Shown: piece by piece, positions 48,090 to 53,535 of the stretch | Layout of the letters: every line of letters starts with the position of its first letter | How positions within the stretch are numbered: position 1 is the first letter of the stretch | Notes under the pieces: generated by a model | What the model was told of the DNA's origin: nothing | The model's database searches: none | What the model saw: only the letters and a program-made list of their open reading frames with translations | From: a phage | Assembly: GCA_024911895.1 (NCBI GenBank) | Contig: GCA_024911895.1_3948.1 | Length of the DNA: 64,000 nucleotides | Strand: one strand, 5' to 3' | Position numbers and translations under genes: made by a program

Positions 48090-48165
48090 TGGAGAATCCG
48101 AAGGGACTCGAACCCTTATAAACCTGTTTTGCAGACAGGCACATAGCCATTTCTGTCACGGATTC
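48090..48165 (-). tRNA. tRNA-Cys (GCA)
   Basis: Hand fold: acceptor GAATCCG/CGGATTC, anticodon arm CCTGT-CTGCAAA-ACAGG, T-arm GGGTTCGAGTCCC, CCA encoded. Confidence 0.75.
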
Positions 48166-48169
48166 AAAT

Positions 48170-48262
48170 TGGAGGAAGATACCAGACTTGAACTGGTACA
48201 CCGATTTCTCAGCTACTGGCAGTTTAGCAAACTGCTCCCTTACCTTTTAGGGTTAATCTTCC
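48170..48262 (-). tRNA. tRNA-Ser (GCU), type II
   Basis: 93 nt, acceptor GGAAGAT/ATCTTCC, anticodon loop TTGCTAA, long variable arm. Confidence 0.7.
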
Positions 48263-48263
48263 A

Positions 48264-48998
48264 TTATTTCTGTAATGCGTTCTTCATTTCTGGTGTTGCA
48301 ATAGCATCAATTACACCAGTTTTACAAGCATCATCAAACCAGTCTGGTAAGATACCTGCTAAGAACCCATTGATATTCGTTTTAAGGTACTCTGCAATAA
48401 GGGTAGCTTCTTCTTCAATCATCTGCACAACTTCATCTGCATAAGCTGTAATCTTTGAGATACCTTCATTAATCTTACTAACAGCCTGATTAGCTAAATC
48501 AGAAACAGTATCAAGACCCTTATCAATAGCATCTTGTAAGTCACTTAATACATCATTAACGCCATCTAGAGCATTATTGATAGTGTCAATAGCTTGCTGA
48601 CCATACTCTGTAGCAACACCCATAATACCACTGAATGGTGTACAACCAACTTGTTCTCCTGCTGCACCCATAACATTGGAATATCCCTTTGCTACCTGCA
48701 TACGTGATGAAAACTCATCAATAGACTTTTGACCGTAGTCTGTTAGGGTCTTAGTAGTTGCTGTAGTGCTTGTAAGGCTTGTTGTAAAGCTGTTTAGAAG
48801 GACTGTTGTAAGTCCAGCAGCAACAAGTTTCTCCTTCATTGTAGGGTCTGTTACAGAGCTAATAGAACTTACAAGTGATGTAGAGGCAGCTACGGTTCCA
48901 CCGAGAACTGCTGCACCAGTAATAAGTGGGTTAGAAAACCCTTTACCGGTTTTTAAGAGGTTAAAAATCTCCTTACCTTGTTCTGTCATCTCTTTCAT
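48264..48998 (-). CDS. Hypothetical protein embedded in tRNA array
   Basis: ORF 48264-49061 uses GTG and overlaps tRNA-Phe; internal ATG at 48998 or 48989 is the likely start. Confidence 0.4.
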   Translation of the reverse strand: MKEMTEQGKEIFNLLKTGKGFSNPLITGAAVLGGTVAASTSLVSSISSVTDPTMKEKLVAAGLTTVLLNSFTTSLTSTTATTKTLTDYGQKSIDEFSSRMQVAKGYSNVMGAAGEQVGCTPFSGIMGVATEYGQQAIDTINNALDGVNDVLSDLQDAIDKGLDTVSDLANQAVSKINEGISKITAYADEVVQMIEEEATLIAEYLKTNINGFLAGILPDWFDDACKTGVIDAIATPEMKNALQK

Positions 48999-49014
48999 TA
49001 AGCACCTTTGAAAT

Positions 49015-49090
49015 TGGTAGTCCAGTGGGATTTGAACCCTCTTCTCATGTTTTTCAGACACGCGCTTTAACCATATAAGCTACTTGGACT
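49015..49090 (-). tRNA. tRNA-Phe (GAA)
   Basis: Anticodon loop CTGAAAA, T-arm GGGTTCAAATCCC. Confidence 0.7.
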
Positions 49091-49096
49091 ATAAAT

Positions 49097-49172
49097 TGGG
49101 GTGACCTACGGGATTTGAACACGTATAGACCATGTTCACAGCATGGGTCATTACCATTTATGATAAGGCCAC
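49097..49172 (-). tRNA. tRNA-His (GUG)
   Basis: Anticodon arm CCATG-CTGTGAA-CATGG. Confidence 0.7.
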
Positions 49173-49203
49173 ATTTAAGGACTCTCGTAAGAACCCTTAG
49201 AAG

Positions 49204-49279
49204 TGGCAGCGGCATAAGGATTTGAACCTTAATAAGACAGCTTCAGAGACTGCTGCATTGCCAGTTATGCTATACCGCT
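49204..49279 (-). tRNA. tRNA-Gln (CUG)
   Basis: Anticodon loop CTCTGAA with two GU pairs in stem. Confidence 0.55.
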
Positions 49280-49284
49280 AAATT

Positions 49285-49363
49285 TGGTACTCCATATCGG
49301 ATTCGAACCGATACATAACACAGATTTTAAGTCTGGCCTCTCTACCAATTGGAGTAATGGAGC
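49285..49363 (-). tRNA. tRNA with anticodon UAA (Leu-type anticodon) but short variable loop
   Basis: Acceptor GCTCCAT/ATGGAGT, D-loop AATTGGTA, anticodon loop CTTAAAA, 7-nt variable region. Confidence 0.5.
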
Positions 49364-49365
49364 AT

Positions 49366-49441
49366 TGGCGGGGGATGTTGGAATTGAACCAACTTCTTCG
49401 ATTTCAAAGACCGAGGTTTTAACCTTGTAAACTAATCCCCT
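49366..49441 (-). tRNA. tRNA-Gln (UUG)
   Basis: Anticodon arm TCGGT-CTTTGAA-ATCGA. Confidence 0.65.
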
Positions 49442-49449
49442 TTAAATCT

Positions 49450-50007
49450 TTACTTTCTCAGTGGATGAATAAAGAATGCCAACATAACTCTTTCCCTTGA
49501 GAATGCTCTTTCTTCTGGGACAACACTTTTTAGCTTCCATCCAATATAAATTCTCCAGTAAAACTGTTTACCAAAGACTTTAATTGATGGGATAAAAGCG
49601 AATAATCCCCAAGCATTACTGTTCCACATTAGGAGGTAACCAGTCTGATTATCTTCAGGGTCAGAACTTACGTTGATATTACCTTTCCACTTAGTAACAC
49701 CTTTTACATCTCTTCCTAATACATGGTAAGAGAAGTTATAAGCTTTGTTTCTCCAGAGCCATCCAACTCTCTGCATGTAGATACCCAGCTTACCAATCTT
49801 TCTAATCTTAGCCCATCTTTTAACGTGGCCTTCATCACCATCAATCGGGTTGTCATAGGTCTCCATCCATCTGAATCCAAAAGGTAGATGTCCTTTCTTC
49901 TCACTGTAGAATGGAACTACGAAAGGTGCTAAGATGACTGCTAGGGTTGCTGCAAATGGTTCTAACAAAGCTAAGAAAATCCATGAAACATATTTTAAGT
50001 ATCTCAT
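49450..50007 (-). CDS. Hypothetical membrane protein embedded in tRNA array
   Basis: 185 aa with N-terminal TM segment. Confidence 0.4.
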   Translation of the reverse strand: MRYLKYVSWIFLALLEPFAATLAVILAPFVVPFYSEKKGHLPFGFRWMETYDNPIDGDEGHVKRWAKIRKIGKLGIYMQRVGWLWRNKAYNFSYHVLGRDVKGVTKWKGNINVSSDPEDNQTGYLLMWNSNAWGLFAFIPSIKVFGKQFYWRIYIGWKLKSVVPEERAFSRERVMLAFFIHPLRK

Positions 50008-50246
50008 TGTCTAACCCTCGTAAGGAGGTAAGTATTATTGTCTGTTTCTGAGTTTTCTGGTAACACTGTCTCAAAATTGATACTTTTAAATTGTCTTCCA
50101 CCAAAGTAATGACCAAGAAATTTTCCTACTTTTATTGGGTCGCATTCCCATCCGACTTTCAAGAAGATGTGGGTATCTATAGTGGGAACCCTTACAAACT
50201 CAATACTGTTGGGATTTTCATGTTCAACGACGATTAATGTTTGCAT
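50004..50246 (-). CDS. Hypothetical protein (80 aa)
   Basis: ORF. Confidence 0.35.
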   Translation of the reverse strand: MQTLIVVEHENPNSIEFVRVPTIDTHIFLKVGWECDPIKVGKFLGHYFGGRQFKSINFETVLPENSETDNNTYLLTRVRQ

Positions 50247-50264
50247 AAATTCCTCTTGCTTATC

Positions 50265-50340
50265 TGGCGCAGGATAAGGGATTCGAACCCCTATTAACAG
50301 CTTCGTAGACTGTTGCTCTATCCATTTGAACTAATCCTGC
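50265..50340 (-). tRNA. tRNA-Arg (ACG)
   Basis: Anticodon arm ACAGT-CTACGAA-GCTGT. Confidence 0.7.
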
Positions 50341-52494: not shown

Positions 52495-52607
52495 ACCAGA
52501 CCGTTGTTTATCATCTTAAGTGCTACCATTACACCAACTCGACATCTGCCGAGTGAAGGAATCGAACCTTCGCCTTTTCTTTACCGGAGAAATAGATTGT
52601 TTAAAGT

Positions 52608-52635
52608 TTGCTGTAAACGGTCTTCTGTAAATTTG
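52608..52635. repeat. Repeat box copy A (TTGCTGTAAACGGTCTTCTGTAAATTTG)
   Basis: Identical core to copy at 53180-53208. Confidence 0.6.
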
Positions 52636-52694
52636 TTGAGCCAGACCAAGTTTTAAATTTTCAAAATTAAATTGGCTTGAAATTTCATACATTC

Positions 52695-52715
52695 TTGCTG
52701 TATTTGGTCTTCTGC
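52695..52715. repeat. Repeat box copy D (TTGCTGTATTTGGTCTTCTGC)
   Basis: Degenerate copy of same box, preceded by CCAGACC at 52641-52647. Confidence 0.5.
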
Positions 52716-52747
52716 TCCTTTAAAGAATACTCGTAAGAACTCTTTAA

Positions 52748-52759
52748 GGGGGGGGGGGG
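52748..52759. repeat. Homopolymeric G12 tract in non-coding DNA
   Basis: 12 consecutive G. Confidence 0.8.
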
Positions 52760-52804
52760 CTAAATAGCCCTCTCAAACATCATTTTGAAATACTTATTAT
52801 AATT

Positions 52805-52882
52805 TGGCGGTTACGAAGGGATTTGAACCCTCATCATCTCCCGTGACAGGGGAGTATTTTAACCAGATTAAACTACATAGCC
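52805..52882 (-). tRNA. tRNA-Asp (GUC)
   Basis: Anticodon arm CTCCC-CTGTCAC-GGGAG. Confidence 0.7.
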
Positions 52883-52888
52883 TTTATT

Positions 52889-52976
52889 TGGTGTGCCGTG
52901 TAGGAGTCGAACCTACCGAGTCTCAATGACAAGGGATTTACAGTCCCCACCGCTACCATCTACGGGATAACGACAC
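52889..52976 (-). tRNA. tRNA-Tyr (GUA), type II
   Basis: Anticodon arm GGGGA-CTGTAAA-TCCCT, long variable arm, T-stem GTAGG/CCTAC. Confidence 0.75.
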
Positions 52977-53045
52977 ATTTAATTTCTATTCAGGCTAAGG
53001 ACTTGCACCTTACAAATCGGTGAGCAATCGCTTCTCTCCTAAATT

Positions 53046-53122
53046 TGGCGGTTAGTCAGGGATTCGAACCCTGTGCCATTCGCTTAACAGGCGACCGCAC
53101 ATACCTTATGTGCTTCCTAACC
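53046..53122 (-). tRNA. tRNA-Asn (GUU)
   Basis: Anticodon loop CTGTTAA. Confidence 0.7.
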
Positions 53123-53179
53123 ATGTTTAGTATTGCCAGACCGTATCTTTCAATTTTTCCGCTAAAAATTTAATAAGTA

Positions 53180-53208
53180 TTGCTGTAAACGGTCTTCTGT
53201 AAATTTGG
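53180..53208. repeat. Repeat box copy B (TTGCTGTAAACGGTCTTCTGTAAATTTGG), abuts 3' end of tRNA at 53206
   Basis: Matches copy A; preceded by CCAGACC at 53136-53142. Confidence 0.6.
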
Positions 53209-53282
53209 AGGCGGGTGCAGGAGTCGAACCTGCCGATACCATGCTAATGAGACATGTGAGACGCCCTTTCTCTATACCCGCA
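53206..53282 (-). tRNA. tRNA with CAU anticodon (Met or Ile2)
   Basis: Anticodon loop CTCATTA; D region irregular. Confidence 0.55.
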
Positions 53283-53345
53283 ATTCTTAATGACCAGACC
53301 AAATCTCTTCTTTGTCCGATTTACCTTCAGATGAATAAGATTAAG

Positions 53346-53376
53346 TTTGCTGTAATTGGTCTTCTGTCAAAACTGG
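53346..53376. repeat. Repeat box copy C (TTTGCTGTAATTGGTCTTCTGTCAAAACTGG), abuts 3' end of tRNA-Glu
   Basis: Preceded by CCAGACC at 53294-53300. Confidence 0.55.
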
Positions 53377-53451
53377 CGTTCCAGAAGGGATTTGAACCCT
53401 CAAATATCCACTTTGAAAGAGTGGTGACTTTACCATTTTGTCTACTGGAAC
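53374..53451 (-). tRNA. tRNA-Glu (UUC)
   Basis: Anticodon arm CCACT-CTTTCAA-AGTGG, perfect acceptor. Confidence 0.75.
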
Positions 53452-53458
53452 ATTAATT

Positions 53459-53535
53459 TGGTCTCTGTTGGAGGACTTGAACCTCCGGCCTTACCGCCCC
53501 AAACGGAACGCTCTACCAAGCTGAGCTAAACAGAG
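53459..53535 (-). tRNA. tRNA-Pro (UGG)
   Basis: D-arm AGCTCAGCTTGGTAGAGC, anticodon loop TTTGGGG, T-stem GGAGG/CCTCC. Confidence 0.75.

Follow-up and report, generated by a model that had tools for sequence, protein, structure and literature searches.

A minus-strand array of tRNA genes in a Felixounavirus (Felix O1 type) probably forms a mixed island of tRNAs and small RNAs 3′ of a gene for a Ro60-like protein, in which 25 ordinary tRNAs are accompanied by two deviant, presumably functional tRNAs and by four RNAs resembling partners of Ro60. The array occupies positions 48090–53535 of a 64,000-nucleotide stretch of phage DNA (NCBI GenBank assembly GCA_024911895.1, contig GCA_024911895.1_3948.1), which as a whole is hereafter called the window. 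The tRNA array itself is ordinary and already known; what appears to be undescribed so far is a family of tRNAs with the anticodon UCU and no D-arm, together with an odd tRNA for Trp and the RNAs that resemble partners of Ro60. We infer the functions of the two odd tRNAs and of the four RNAs (U1–U4) from sequence, conservation and genomic context.

Two Loci That Depart from the Cloverleaf

At 51694–51776, a 7-bp acceptor stem (CGGGGCG/CGCCUCG) followed by A73 and CCA, an anticodon-type arm (GCGGU-CUUCUAA-ACCGC) with the anticodon UCU, and a T-arm (GCGGG-UUCGAGU-CCUGC) are joined by two connectors, i.e., the 7-nt UAUCUCA between acceptor and anticodon stem and the 23-nt CGUUAACCGAGUAAGUGGAGUAU between anticodon arm and T-arm. 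No D-arm exists at this locus, where merely the 7 nt of the first connector are available for it, and ARAGORN is silent; the Rfam tRNA model (RF00005) matches 51697–51775 with 31.7 bits, its gathering score being 29. The lack of a D-arm apart, the locus has the features of a tRNA, with a 5-bp anticodon stem, a 7-nt loop bearing U33 and a purine at position 37, and a 5-bp T-stem closed by a UUCRANY loop, all arms being backed by covariation.

The second locus, at 51468–51550, has the acceptor GUGGGAC/GUCCCAU, in which the first pair is a G1·U72 wobble, followed by G73 and CCA. A 10-nt linker, GAUGUUAAGA, precedes a 3-bp D-stem (CUC/GAG) with the loop UAAGGCAU, followed by CA; the anticodon arm (ACGGC-CUCCAAA-ACCGU) carries the anticodon CCA and a C31·A39 mismatch that closes the loop, and UUCA separates it from the T-arm (AGGGG-UUCAACU-CCUCC). 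ARAGORN made no call for this gene in the window or in four relatives, RF00005 gave no match at E ≤ 10, and the sole Rfam match was to tRNA-Sec, with 23 bits against a gathering score of 47. Folding as a tRNA-Sec or as an allo-tRNA-type 8/4 molecule was rejected in favor of a 7/5 fold, because relatives show a 7-bp acceptor (A1-U72) and the 49:65 mismatch is paired in Suspvirus.

An earlier note on this DNA, made by reading the sequence, had listed 27 tRNA genes on the minus strand and had described these two as having an enlarged or missing D-arm. Both statements hold, the 27 genes being made up of 25 ARAGORN genes, 51694–51776, supported by Rfam, and 51468–51550. The 5′ ends required correction: 51775 was one base short of the true end at 51776, and 51551 one base beyond the true end at 51550. 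These slips are what could be said for the view that the boundaries were misplaced and that both loci are ordinary tRNAs; however, the corrected ends still leave the first without a D-arm and the second with its 10-nt linker, and ARAGORN rescues neither as a canonical tRNA, in the window or in four relatives, which makes this explanation exceedingly improbable.

Conservation of the Two Odd tRNAs

At the same site and between the same flanks, phages of the genera Mooglevirus (Mordin, Sf13) and Suspvirus (phiSUSP1) carry a canonical tRNA-Arg(UCU), whose anticodon arm (CGGUCUUCUAAACCG) is nearly identical to that of the D-armless element. Both alleles occur within Felixounavirus, phage finno having the canonical gene in matching context. 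A BLAST search with the 91-nt element as query returned 277 records, 143 of them at ≥90% identity, taken as mainly Felixounaviruses, and 134 at 80–90%. Six divergent records (83–90% identity) were fetched, which belong to Sugarlandvirus (Demerecviridae), Asteriusvirus (350-kb jumbo phages), Mydovirus (Vequintavirinae), Justusliebigvirus (Stephanstirmvirinae; two records) and Kuravirus (a podovirus); none of the six has a tRNA annotated at the site of the element. The element is thus known from at least six phage taxa.

An alignment of seven sequences shows standard pairing throughout at the 20 proposed pairs, seven of which have double-sided changes (four in the acceptor, three in the anticodon stem), and both connectors and the anticodon loop are invariant among these BLAST-derived copies. 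Searching with a pattern drawn from the invariant parts brought up 38 contigs in IMG/VR and one contig of a bacterial metagenome-assembled genome. Pairing holds for 99.4% of the 476 stem cells among 28 distinct copies, compared with a mean of 69% and a maximum of 73% in 500 shuffles, and the acceptor stems are nearly all different. The discriminator is always a purine (G in 16 copies, A in 12), and CCA is encoded in 18 of the 28, with other triplets in the remainder; lack of an encoded CCA is usual for tRNA genes.

The D-armless element always lies within tRNA arrays. Among about 220 ARAGORN tRNAs in 20 loci that bear it, canonical Arg(UCU) is absent, though Arg(ACG) and Arg(UCG) occur, and each of the six relatives in which the element is missing has canonical Arg(UCU) (Mordin, phiSUSP1, Sf13, Wc4-1, finno and the distant L011; labels of this form denote individual sequences of the comparison). 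An HNH gene starts a few nucleotides 3′ of the element in Felix O1, in Klebsiella phage EK80 and in several metagenomic copies, such that part of its spread may be hitch-hiking with homing endonucleases. The annotators of >200 genomes left the odd loci blank or labeled them “tRNA” or “tRNA-OTHER,” and no report of a D-armless phage tRNA was found in the literature.

Some further peculiarities were seen around the element and in comparable arrays. In the metagenomic copy L105, a 339-aa open reading frame (ORF) begins 38 nt after the element, and its N-terminus, MRKLATIRHIDAIDPIPNADSIEVATLGGWKVVVKK..., resembles that of an RNA ligase. Directly after the canonical tRNA-Arg(UCU), Mordin (L003, about 6010–6135) and phiSUSP1 (L004, about 6013–6140) have an extra tRNA-like element of about 125 nt, with the acceptor GGUCAAG/CUUGACU, G73, CCA, a T-arm and an interior of about 80 nt; it has the box GAGUAAGU in common with the D-armless element. 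Some genes of other phage tRNA arrays are given by ARAGORN as “tRNA-???” with anticodons of two bases, implying an abnormal length of the anticodon loop (L096 928–997 and 2598–2672, L098 262–337, L124 5383–5457, L133 1770–1845).

The Trp-like gene at 51468–51550 is conserved, and unannotated, in Felixounavirus, Mooglevirus, Suspvirus and Pectobacterium phage Wc4-1. Its anticodon stem (ACGG/CCGU, UAAG/CUUA, GUAGG/CCUAC) varies in a compensatory manner; the variants of the D-stem are CUC/GAG, CAC/GUG and ACA/UGU, and those of the T-stem GGGG/CCUC, UGGG/CCUA and AGAG/CUCU. The loop YUCCAAA, G73 and CCA are fixed among relatives, most of which have A1-U72; G73, A1-U72 and the CCA anticodon form the identity set of E. 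coli TrpRS. Suspvirus lacks the 10-nt linker; all copies that have it share one linker sequence. A loose pattern scan of IMG/VR gave mostly chance matches, and structural filtering left this form only in Ounavirinae. No other Trp tRNA was found in the window or in the relatives examined. The gene therefore looks like an Ounavirinae-specific, putatively functional tRNA-Trp(CCA) with an 8-nt insertion before a shortened D-stem; that the informative relatives number only six counts against this view.

Could both odd loci be decaying tRNA pseudogenes, e.g., scars of homing-endonuclease genes, as the earlier note had allowed? ARAGORN calls neither of them, HNH genes lie directly 3′ of the D-armless element in the phages named above, and three HNH genes break up the array of Felix O1. 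The comparative data contradict this explanation, which we regard as very improbable: in the six phage taxa and the 28 copies, the helices of the D-armless element are kept by compensatory substitutions, its loops and connectors are fixed, and the Trp-like stems covary across four lineages. A decaying gene would not spread while staying foldable.

A Probable AGA Decoder and Its Rivals

The D-armless element, which occurs in many unrelated enterobacterial phages, takes the place of canonical tRNA-Arg(UCU) and is most likely a functional non-canonical tRNA, presumably the phage's AGA decoder in non-cloverleaf form. It is read as such on account of its synteny with tRNA-Arg(UCU), the lack of co-occurrence of the two, the use of AGA by the phage, the loop CUUCUAA, which is the anticodon loop of tRNA-Arg(UCU), and the purine at position 73, which agrees with ArgRS identity. 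In the long ORFs of the window, Arg is most often encoded by AGA (42% of Arg codons, 17.5 per 1000 codons), which is rare in E. coli. The gaps among the ARAGORN-called tRNAs of the array are exactly Trp and the AGA/AGG box, and the two odd loci fill them; together with the helices and anticodon loops kept by compensatory change, this makes non-canonical tRNAs the best fit among the options that the earlier note had raised.

In the structure that we propose, CUC (in UAUCUCA) would pair with GAG (in CCGAGUA) to give a 3-bp pseudo-D-stem stacked on the anticodon stem, and UGGAGUA in the 23-nt connector (cf. the D-loop UUGGAUA) would act as the G18-G19-A20 of a D-loop, supplying both the elbow contact and an A20-like determinant for ArgRS, such that the L-shape would be retained through different wiring. 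Since CUC and GAG are invariant, this helix is neither backed nor contradicted by covariation. Reading both odd loci as tRNAs would further entail charging of the element by ArgRS, charging of the Trp-like tRNA by TrpRS, and ribosomal use of both.

Several points weigh against this interpretation. The search pattern itself forced the connectors of the 28-copy set to be invariant, their invariance being independent only in the seven BLAST-derived copies, and a canonical Arg(UCU) possibly lies outside the sampled sequence because many D-armless loci are partial contigs. A20 of the D-loop is an identity element for E. coli ArgRS, and 51694–51776 has no D-loop. The window copy combines G3·U70 with A73, the identity set of AlaRS, such that charging with Ala is possible; G·U stands at that pair in just 10 of the 28 copies. 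The Rfam tmRNA model (RF00023, gathering score 47) matches the acceptor and T-arm of the element with 22.1 bits. Finally, all known bacterial tRNAs are stated to be cloverleaves (PMC11551756), and use of a D-armless molecule by E. coli ArgRS, EF-Tu and ribosome would thus be unprecedented.

The closest structural parallels are the D-armless mitochondrial tRNAs of animals, e.g., mt-tRNA-Ser(AGY), which likewise consist of acceptor, anticodon arm and T-arm with a short connector in place of the D-arm (PMC7609411, PMC9427863). Unlike them, the phage element is not reduced: it measures 82 nt, its T-loop (UUCGAGU) is canonical, a long 23-nt connector of invariant sequence lies on the side of the variable region, and it would need to work with unadapted bacterial ArgRS, EF-Tu and ribosomes.

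Upstream of the element, the leader 51777–52068 holds a tag frame at 51895–51930, AAUAAAU-GCAAACGACAAUGUUUUUCUGGCAGUAGCUUGAUAG, which specifies ANDNVFLAVA and then has two stops; the SsrA tag of E. coli is ANDENYALAA. The frame is conserved in Felixounavirus, Mooglevirus and Suspvirus, varying only by a synonymous substitution at Asp, by Val to Ala and by TGA to TAA. Against the Rfam models tmRNA and tmRNA_permuted (RF00023 and RF04321; 47 bits), 51777–51966 scored 15.4 and 20.3 bits, below threshold, and no split tRNA-like domain or acceptor halves were found flanking the tag frame. A “permuted tmRNA” called by ARAGORN in Mordin, which joins the permuted tRNA-like domain of U4 (see below) to the tag-like frame and spans three tRNAs and a promoter, was rejected as a composite artefact; no such call was made in the window.

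These matches, all sub-threshold in both element and leader, together with G3·U70 and A73 of the window copy and a tag-like frame preceded by AAUAAAU-GCA as in tmRNA, 162 nt upstream, are the grounds on which the element might be taken for a miniature tmRNA-like domain, charged with Ala and acting with SmpB on stalled ribosomes, possibly with the upstream tag. The tRNA-like domains of tmRNAs are also without a D-stem, combining acceptor and T-arm as the window copy does. We nonetheless consider this identity improbable: only 10 of the 28 copies have G3·U70, the tag-like leader does not extend beyond Ounavirinae, where it also precedes the canonical tRNA-Arg of Mooglevirus, Suspvirus and finno, and it is absent near the D-armless copies of other taxa. 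Where tmRNA has the long helix P2 toward its coding part, the element has a hairpin of 5 bp, closed by an anticodon-type loop of 7 nt, and no internal coding region, and every tmRNA score is far under the gathering score.

Mimicry of tRNA is unlikely too, albeit less so; the element would then be a decoy or sponge for a tRNA-targeting nuclease or tRNA-binding protein, or an anti-defence RNA proof against D-loop nucleases. Its horizontal spread among unrelated phages, often linked to mobile HNH genes, would fit such a role, as would the strictly invariant connectors, which suggest recognition by a protein, and the position of the L105 copy beside an ORF that may encode an RNA ligase, to judge by its N-terminus. 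In addition, type I-A retrons are reported to cut tRNA D-loops (PMC12916289). However, the element and tRNA-Arg(UCU) have exactly the same anticodon loop, only A or G is seen as discriminator, in keeping with ArgRS identity, AGA is in heavy use by the phage, and the absence of canonical Arg(UCU) at every examined locus bearing the element indicates replacement rather than addition. Escape from a nuclease and decoding are also compatible with each other, and the D-armless element remains, in our reading, most likely a decoding tRNA.

A Ro60-Like Protein and Its Candidate RNA Partners

Directly upstream of the array lies a gene whose product resembles Ro60, and four unannotated units, U1–U4, are found between the tRNAs:

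53701–55116, minus strand: Ro60-like protein gene, 471 aa, directly upstream of the array (Pfam DUF2828 and DUF7788)
53291–53369, minus strand: U1, short Ro-partner-like/Class I-like RNA (fold; Rfam Dicty_Class_I_RNA, 19.7 bits at 53295–53361)
53134–53200, minus strand: U2, short Ro-partner-like/Class I-like RNA (fold; Rfam Class I, 20.3 bits at 53137–53194)
52638–52717, minus strand: U3, short Ro-partner-like/Class I-like RNA with the outer stem GAGC/GCUC (fold)
52493–52630, minus strand: U4, YrlA-like RNA (fold; weak Rfam tRNA match at 52547–52611, 24.7 bits)

The protein belongs to PHROG 850, “RNA-binding protein.” Its AlphaFold model (pLDDT 83.5) was compared with the PDB by Foldseek, and the ten best matches were all Ro60/TROVE structures, matched over the full length with E-values of 6.5e-10 to 1e-6, about 520–550 alignment columns and TM scores of 0.42–0.64; the Ro60 of Thermus phage phiLo was among them. 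The predicted fold matches that of Ro60, a helical-repeat ring with a vWA domain. Pfam gave no TROVE match for this ORF, only DUF2828 and DUF7788, and sequence search of the PDB and NCBIfam gave nothing. A homologue, gp130 of Felixounavirus Bas63, has been described as having a Ro60-like fold and as countering the Ppl defence, in a 2024 preprint whose authors guessed that some annotated tRNAs might be Y RNAs (PMC11482910). What we find in the place of annotated tRNAs acting as Y RNAs is the set of units U1–U4.

All four are built around a common handle, in which a 4-bp outer stem that differs compensatorily among the paralogues (UGAC/GUCA, GAGC/GCUC, UUAC/GUAA) is followed by an AGA bulge and a 7–8-bp stem AGACCNN/NNGGUCU, and the interior starts with UUACAGCAA, or with AUACAGCAA in U3. 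In U1, the outer stem UGAC/GUCA, the AGA bulge, the stem AGACCAA/UUGGUCU and UUACAGCAA follow each other, and the 3′ end is CUGG. The interior of U4 comprises a small hairpin, a T-arm (GAAGG-UUCGAUU-CCUUC), a closed 7-bp acceptor hairpin, which shows compensatory differences in Mooglevirus, Suspvirus and L011, and a D-arm (GUGU-AAUGGUA-GCAC). The handle AGAAGACC is exactly complementary to GGUCUUCU of the Arg(UCU) anticodon arm, a match rejected as coincidence, with no covariation in Suspvirus or L011 and with 8-nt matches to other tRNAs arising by chance.

The order of parts in U4, with 5′/3′ stem, V hairpin, T-arm, closed acceptor hairpin and D-arm, is that of YrlA (RF02553; Chen et al., 2014, PMC4201824). 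Like YrlA, which goes with Ro60/Rsr, U4 lies beside a gene for a protein of Ro60 fold, and a YUAY motif follows its 5′ stem (UUAC in U4). In contrast to the YrlA system, the protein of the window has DUF2828 and DUF7788 rather than TROVE, and the units are embedded in a tRNA array; in place of the YrlA 5′ motif GNCGAAN0-1G, the phage units have (A)AG-stem-UACAGCAA, U4 reads ACAGAAGACC, and other DUF2828 loci have (A/U)AAG. The YrlA model (gathering score 69 bits) gave no match on U4 at E ≤ 10.

From their position, and by analogy with Ro60 and Y RNA, we infer that U1–U4 may be the RNA partners of the Ro60-like protein; they would be released from the precursor by ordinary tRNA processing. A point against this assignment is that binding by the protein is deduced from position only.

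The Handle at Other DUF2828 Loci and the Class I RNAs of Dictyostelids

The handle was sought at 75 IMG/VR loci whose DUF2828 proteins are 39–48% identical to that of the window, using a strict pattern (a 6-bp stem with initial G or A, U[A/U]CAGC[A/C], the complementary strand, then UG). It occurred 71 times on the strand of the gene and 7 times on the other strand, compared with 0–6 times in shuffles; 62 matches lie ≤1.5 kb from the DUF2828 gene, and 40 of the 75 loci have at least one. The handle stems at these loci are all different; their pairing in our alignment A5 was itself a selection criterion, making that result partly circular, which detracts from its weight as support. Many of the DUF2828-associated units carry tRNA-like cargo, and one phage unit matches Rfam YrlA with 39.2 bits. 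Pectobacterium phage Wc4-1, a member of Ounavirinae with a similar tRNA array, has no DUF2828 homologue genome-wide and no units in its array.

Two side observations concern these loci. A second recurrent cargo of the handle, with the conserved core GAACCUUUCUGGAGGGGAAAGCAAAAACUCGCCAAAA and unrelated to tRNA, is seen at L012, L014, L018, L027 and L029. At L060, a full tmRNA (6619–7092; Rfam 70.9 bits) stands at a phage DUF2828 locus with two handle units, such that Ro60-like genes lie in mixed small-RNA islands of other phages too.

The only Rfam matches on U1 and U2, which span exactly the units, are to Dicty_Class_I_RNA (RF01414), with 19.7 and 20.3 bits; another phage locus (L016) reaches 28.9 bits, and no phage unit (19.7–28.9 bits) attains the gathering score of 41.5. 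Class I RNAs are described as starting with AAG, having a 6-bp covarying stem that joins the ends, an adjacent 11-nt motif CCUUACAGCAA and a CUGU end, measuring about 60 nt (about 42–65 nt) and being unique to Dictyostelia (Kjellin et al., 2021, PMC7919456). A covariance model was built from the 34 Dictyostelid sequences of that study only; in 732 kb of phage loci, it gave 26 matches at E ≤ 1, all of which lie on the strand of the DUF2828 gene and 24 of which are full length, the best with 31.2 bits (E 4e-5). Its two best matches in the window are U1 (17.4 bits, E 0.002) and U2 (14.8 bits).

In layout, the phage units and Class I RNAs are alike: a 5′ G opens a 6-bp covarying stem, (C)UUACAGCAA comes next, CUG follows the 3′ strand, and a variable interior of about 30–50 nt lies after the motif. 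The phage UUACAGCAA agrees with 9 of the 11 motif positions, and the core from G to CUG in U1–U3 measures 58–68 nt, ending in CUGG; two Dictyostelid members (asu_can_20, ppa_can_99) also contain T-arm-like hairpins. By contrast, the spacer between stem and motif is one nucleotide shorter in the phage units, which have no DUSE promoter and no Dictyostelid host and lie inside a polycistronic tRNA array. The known direct binder of Class I RNA is the RRM protein Rnp1A.

Tentatively, and with the balance tipped slightly against it, we raise the idea that Class I RNAs and the RNAs found next to DUF2828 genes of phages could be a single type of molecule, serving as “Y RNAs” in a second branch of the Ro60 family, that of DUF2828 type. 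Class I RNAs would then be partner RNAs of Ro type, the protein would bind at the U1–U4 handle (G-stem, UACAGCAA, CUG), and the particle would offer its modular cargos, tRNA-like domains among them, to other enzymes. No report linking DUF2828 to Class I RNAs was found in the literature, where DUF2828 is named only in plant papers and one tardigrade genome paper. Since mostly plant studies name DUF2828, outgroup candidates for Class I RNAs that were dismissed may merit a second look; one from Arabidopsis, dismissed by the PMC7919456 study, has the full pattern of stem, UUACAGCAA and CUG and a model score of 40.

Overall Composition of the tRNA Array

In the whole window, ARAGORN called 25 tRNA genes, all on the minus strand and within 48090–53535, and 24 loci, among them the D-armless element, pass the gathering score of the Rfam tRNA model; the Tyr gene and the Met gene at 53206–53282 are called by ARAGORN and lie under that score. 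With the UCU and CCA (Trp-like) elements counted, the array covers all 20 amino acids. From 5′ to 3′ along the minus strand, the genes are:

53459–53535, minus strand: tRNA-Pro(UGG) (ARAGORN, Rfam)
53374–53451, minus strand: tRNA-Glu(UUC) (ARAGORN, Rfam)
53206–53282, minus strand: tRNA(CAU), irregular, “Met-A” (ARAGORN; below Rfam gathering score)
53046–53122, minus strand: tRNA-Asn(GUU) (ARAGORN, Rfam)
52889–52976, minus strand: tRNA-Tyr(GUA) with long variable arm (ARAGORN; below Rfam tRNA gathering score)
52805–52882, minus strand: tRNA-Asp(GUC) (ARAGORN, Rfam)
52271–52346, minus strand: tRNA-Lys(UUU) (ARAGORN, Rfam)
52190–52266, minus strand: tRNA(CAU), “Met-B” (ARAGORN, Rfam)
52113–52188, minus strand: tRNA-Ile(GAU) (ARAGORN, Rfam)
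51694–51776, minus strand: D-armless tRNA(UCU) (Rfam 31.7 bits; no ARAGORN call; synteny and covariation)
51468–51550, minus strand: tRNA-Trp(CCA)-like (fold and comparison; no ARAGORN call, no Rfam tRNA pass)
51365–51454, minus strand: tRNA-Ser(UGA) (ARAGORN, Rfam)
51033–51110, minus strand: tRNA-Leu(UAG) (ARAGORN, Rfam)
50950–51025, minus strand: tRNA-Lys(CUU) (ARAGORN, Rfam)
50868–50943, minus strand: tRNA-Ala(UGC) (ARAGORN, Rfam)
50787–50861, minus strand: tRNA-Gly(UCC) (ARAGORN, Rfam)
50704–50780, minus strand: tRNA-Thr(UGU) (ARAGORN, Rfam)
50533–50607, minus strand: tRNA-Val(UAC) (ARAGORN, Rfam)
50454–50531, minus strand: tRNA-Leu(CAA) (ARAGORN, Rfam)
50265–50340, minus strand: tRNA-Arg(ACG) (ARAGORN, Rfam)
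49366–49441, minus strand: tRNA-Gln(UUG) with A1·C72 mismatch (ARAGORN, Rfam)
49285–49363, minus strand: tRNA-Leu(UAA) (ARAGORN, Rfam)
49204–49279, minus strand: tRNA-Gln(CUG) (ARAGORN, Rfam)
49097–49172, minus strand: tRNA-His(GUG) (ARAGORN, Rfam)
49015–49090, minus strand: tRNA-Phe(GAA) (ARAGORN, Rfam)
48170–48262, minus strand: tRNA-Ser(GCU) (ARAGORN, Rfam)
48090–48165, minus strand: tRNA-Cys(GCA), last gene of the array (ARAGORN, Rfam)

Three protein genes (DUF7217, DUF7338 and an 80-aa ORF) lie inside the array, and the large-terminase gene is situated just 3′ of it. A consensus scan gave sigma-70-like promoter matches on the minus strand at 53562–53591 (ahead of tRNA-Pro), 53654–53682, 55155–55184 and 52069–52097; their number in the region is not above chance, and they are leads only. 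The G+C content of the window is about 39%, and its tRNA region and spacers are 95–99% identical to those of many Salmonella, Escherichia and Shigella phages. The tRNA clusters of Felix O1 and other Felixounaviruses occupy the same locus at this level of identity, with the same order of canonical tRNAs, and HNH homing-endonuclease genes are interspersed in some of them. Public annotations of Felixounaviruses list the canonical genes only, leaving out the Trp-like gene, U1–U4 and, in most records, the D-armless element.

The irregular D region that had been noticed at 53206–53282 is real, since 3 nt (AUA) precede the D-stem of Met-A, compared with 2 nt in L011 and Wc4-1, and the gene stays below the Rfam gathering score. 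Its first pair is a U1·C72 mismatch (U1-A72 in L011), and its anticodon loop, CUCAUUA, has U37 in all six homologues. Initiator tRNA-fMet is defined by a 1:72 mismatch together with three consecutive G-C pairs in the anticodon stem, and this G-C run is absent from Met-A, where the stem reads CAUGU/GCAUG; the gene may specify Met, Ile2 or another amino acid. The earlier note's claim that several acceptor stems have a mismatched first pair is borne out for Met-A and for the A1·C72 of tRNA-Gln(UUG); the Trp-like gene has only its G1·U72 wobble, and the first pair is intact in all other tRNAs.

Other Structured Spacers

Several spacers of the minus strand also appear structured. Between U4 and tRNA-Lys, 52347–52495 would form a very stable RNA with a closing helix of about 24 bp around four small hairpins (minimum free energy, MFE, −48.3 kcal/mol; z = −7.2 vs. 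shuffles), perhaps a site of processing by RNase III or a further small RNA. At 51552–51693, the Arg-like and Trp-like genes are separated by a 140-nt spacer that is more conserved across three genera than the surrounding tRNAs, has long invariant runs including GGAGGUGGUCUGUAUCUCAUGUUUUCCAGAACAUGUAAAUAAUCUGAGAAG and folds into several hairpins; a small RNA, or a micro-ORF of 7 codons that has a Shine-Dalgarno sequence, might lie there. A repeated hairpin, AAGRG-UUCUUACGAG-...CUU, occurs at 49177–49198 and 52723–52744, i.e., two exact matches where 0.02 are expected, with a similar one at about 51783–51815; these hairpins lie just upstream of tRNAs or units and may serve as signals for processing or termination.

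A 69-nt insert between tRNA-Asn and tRNA-Tyr (52977–53045; z = −2.6), absent in phage FSL SP-012, has a terminal stem UUUAGG/CCUGAA that resembles the handle of the units, without UACAGCAA. The 96-nt spacer between tRNA-Thr and tRNA-Val (50608–50703) forms a long imperfect hairpin (MFE −30.7 kcal/mol; z = −2.7), and a run of 12 C at 52748–52759, in the spacer that follows tRNA-Asp, is where variation in length or errors of sequencing are likely.

Implications

If the D-armless RNA is charged and used, it would be a natural non-cloverleaf tRNA working with the unmodified translation machinery of E. coli, of which none is known in bacteria according to PMC11551756. Since the family extends over many phage families and is invisible to standard annotation, phage tRNA censuses and codon-supply analyses miss this probable AGA decoder and, in Ounavirinae, the presumed Trp tRNA as well. 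A tRNA without a D-loop might also escape the defence nucleases that cut there. With candidate Y-RNA-like partners of the Felixounavirus Ro60-like anti-defence protein located, that system becomes directly testable, and the motif common to these units and the Class I RNAs of Dictyostelium would provide a concrete candidate protein family for a long-unexplained class of eukaryotic RNA.

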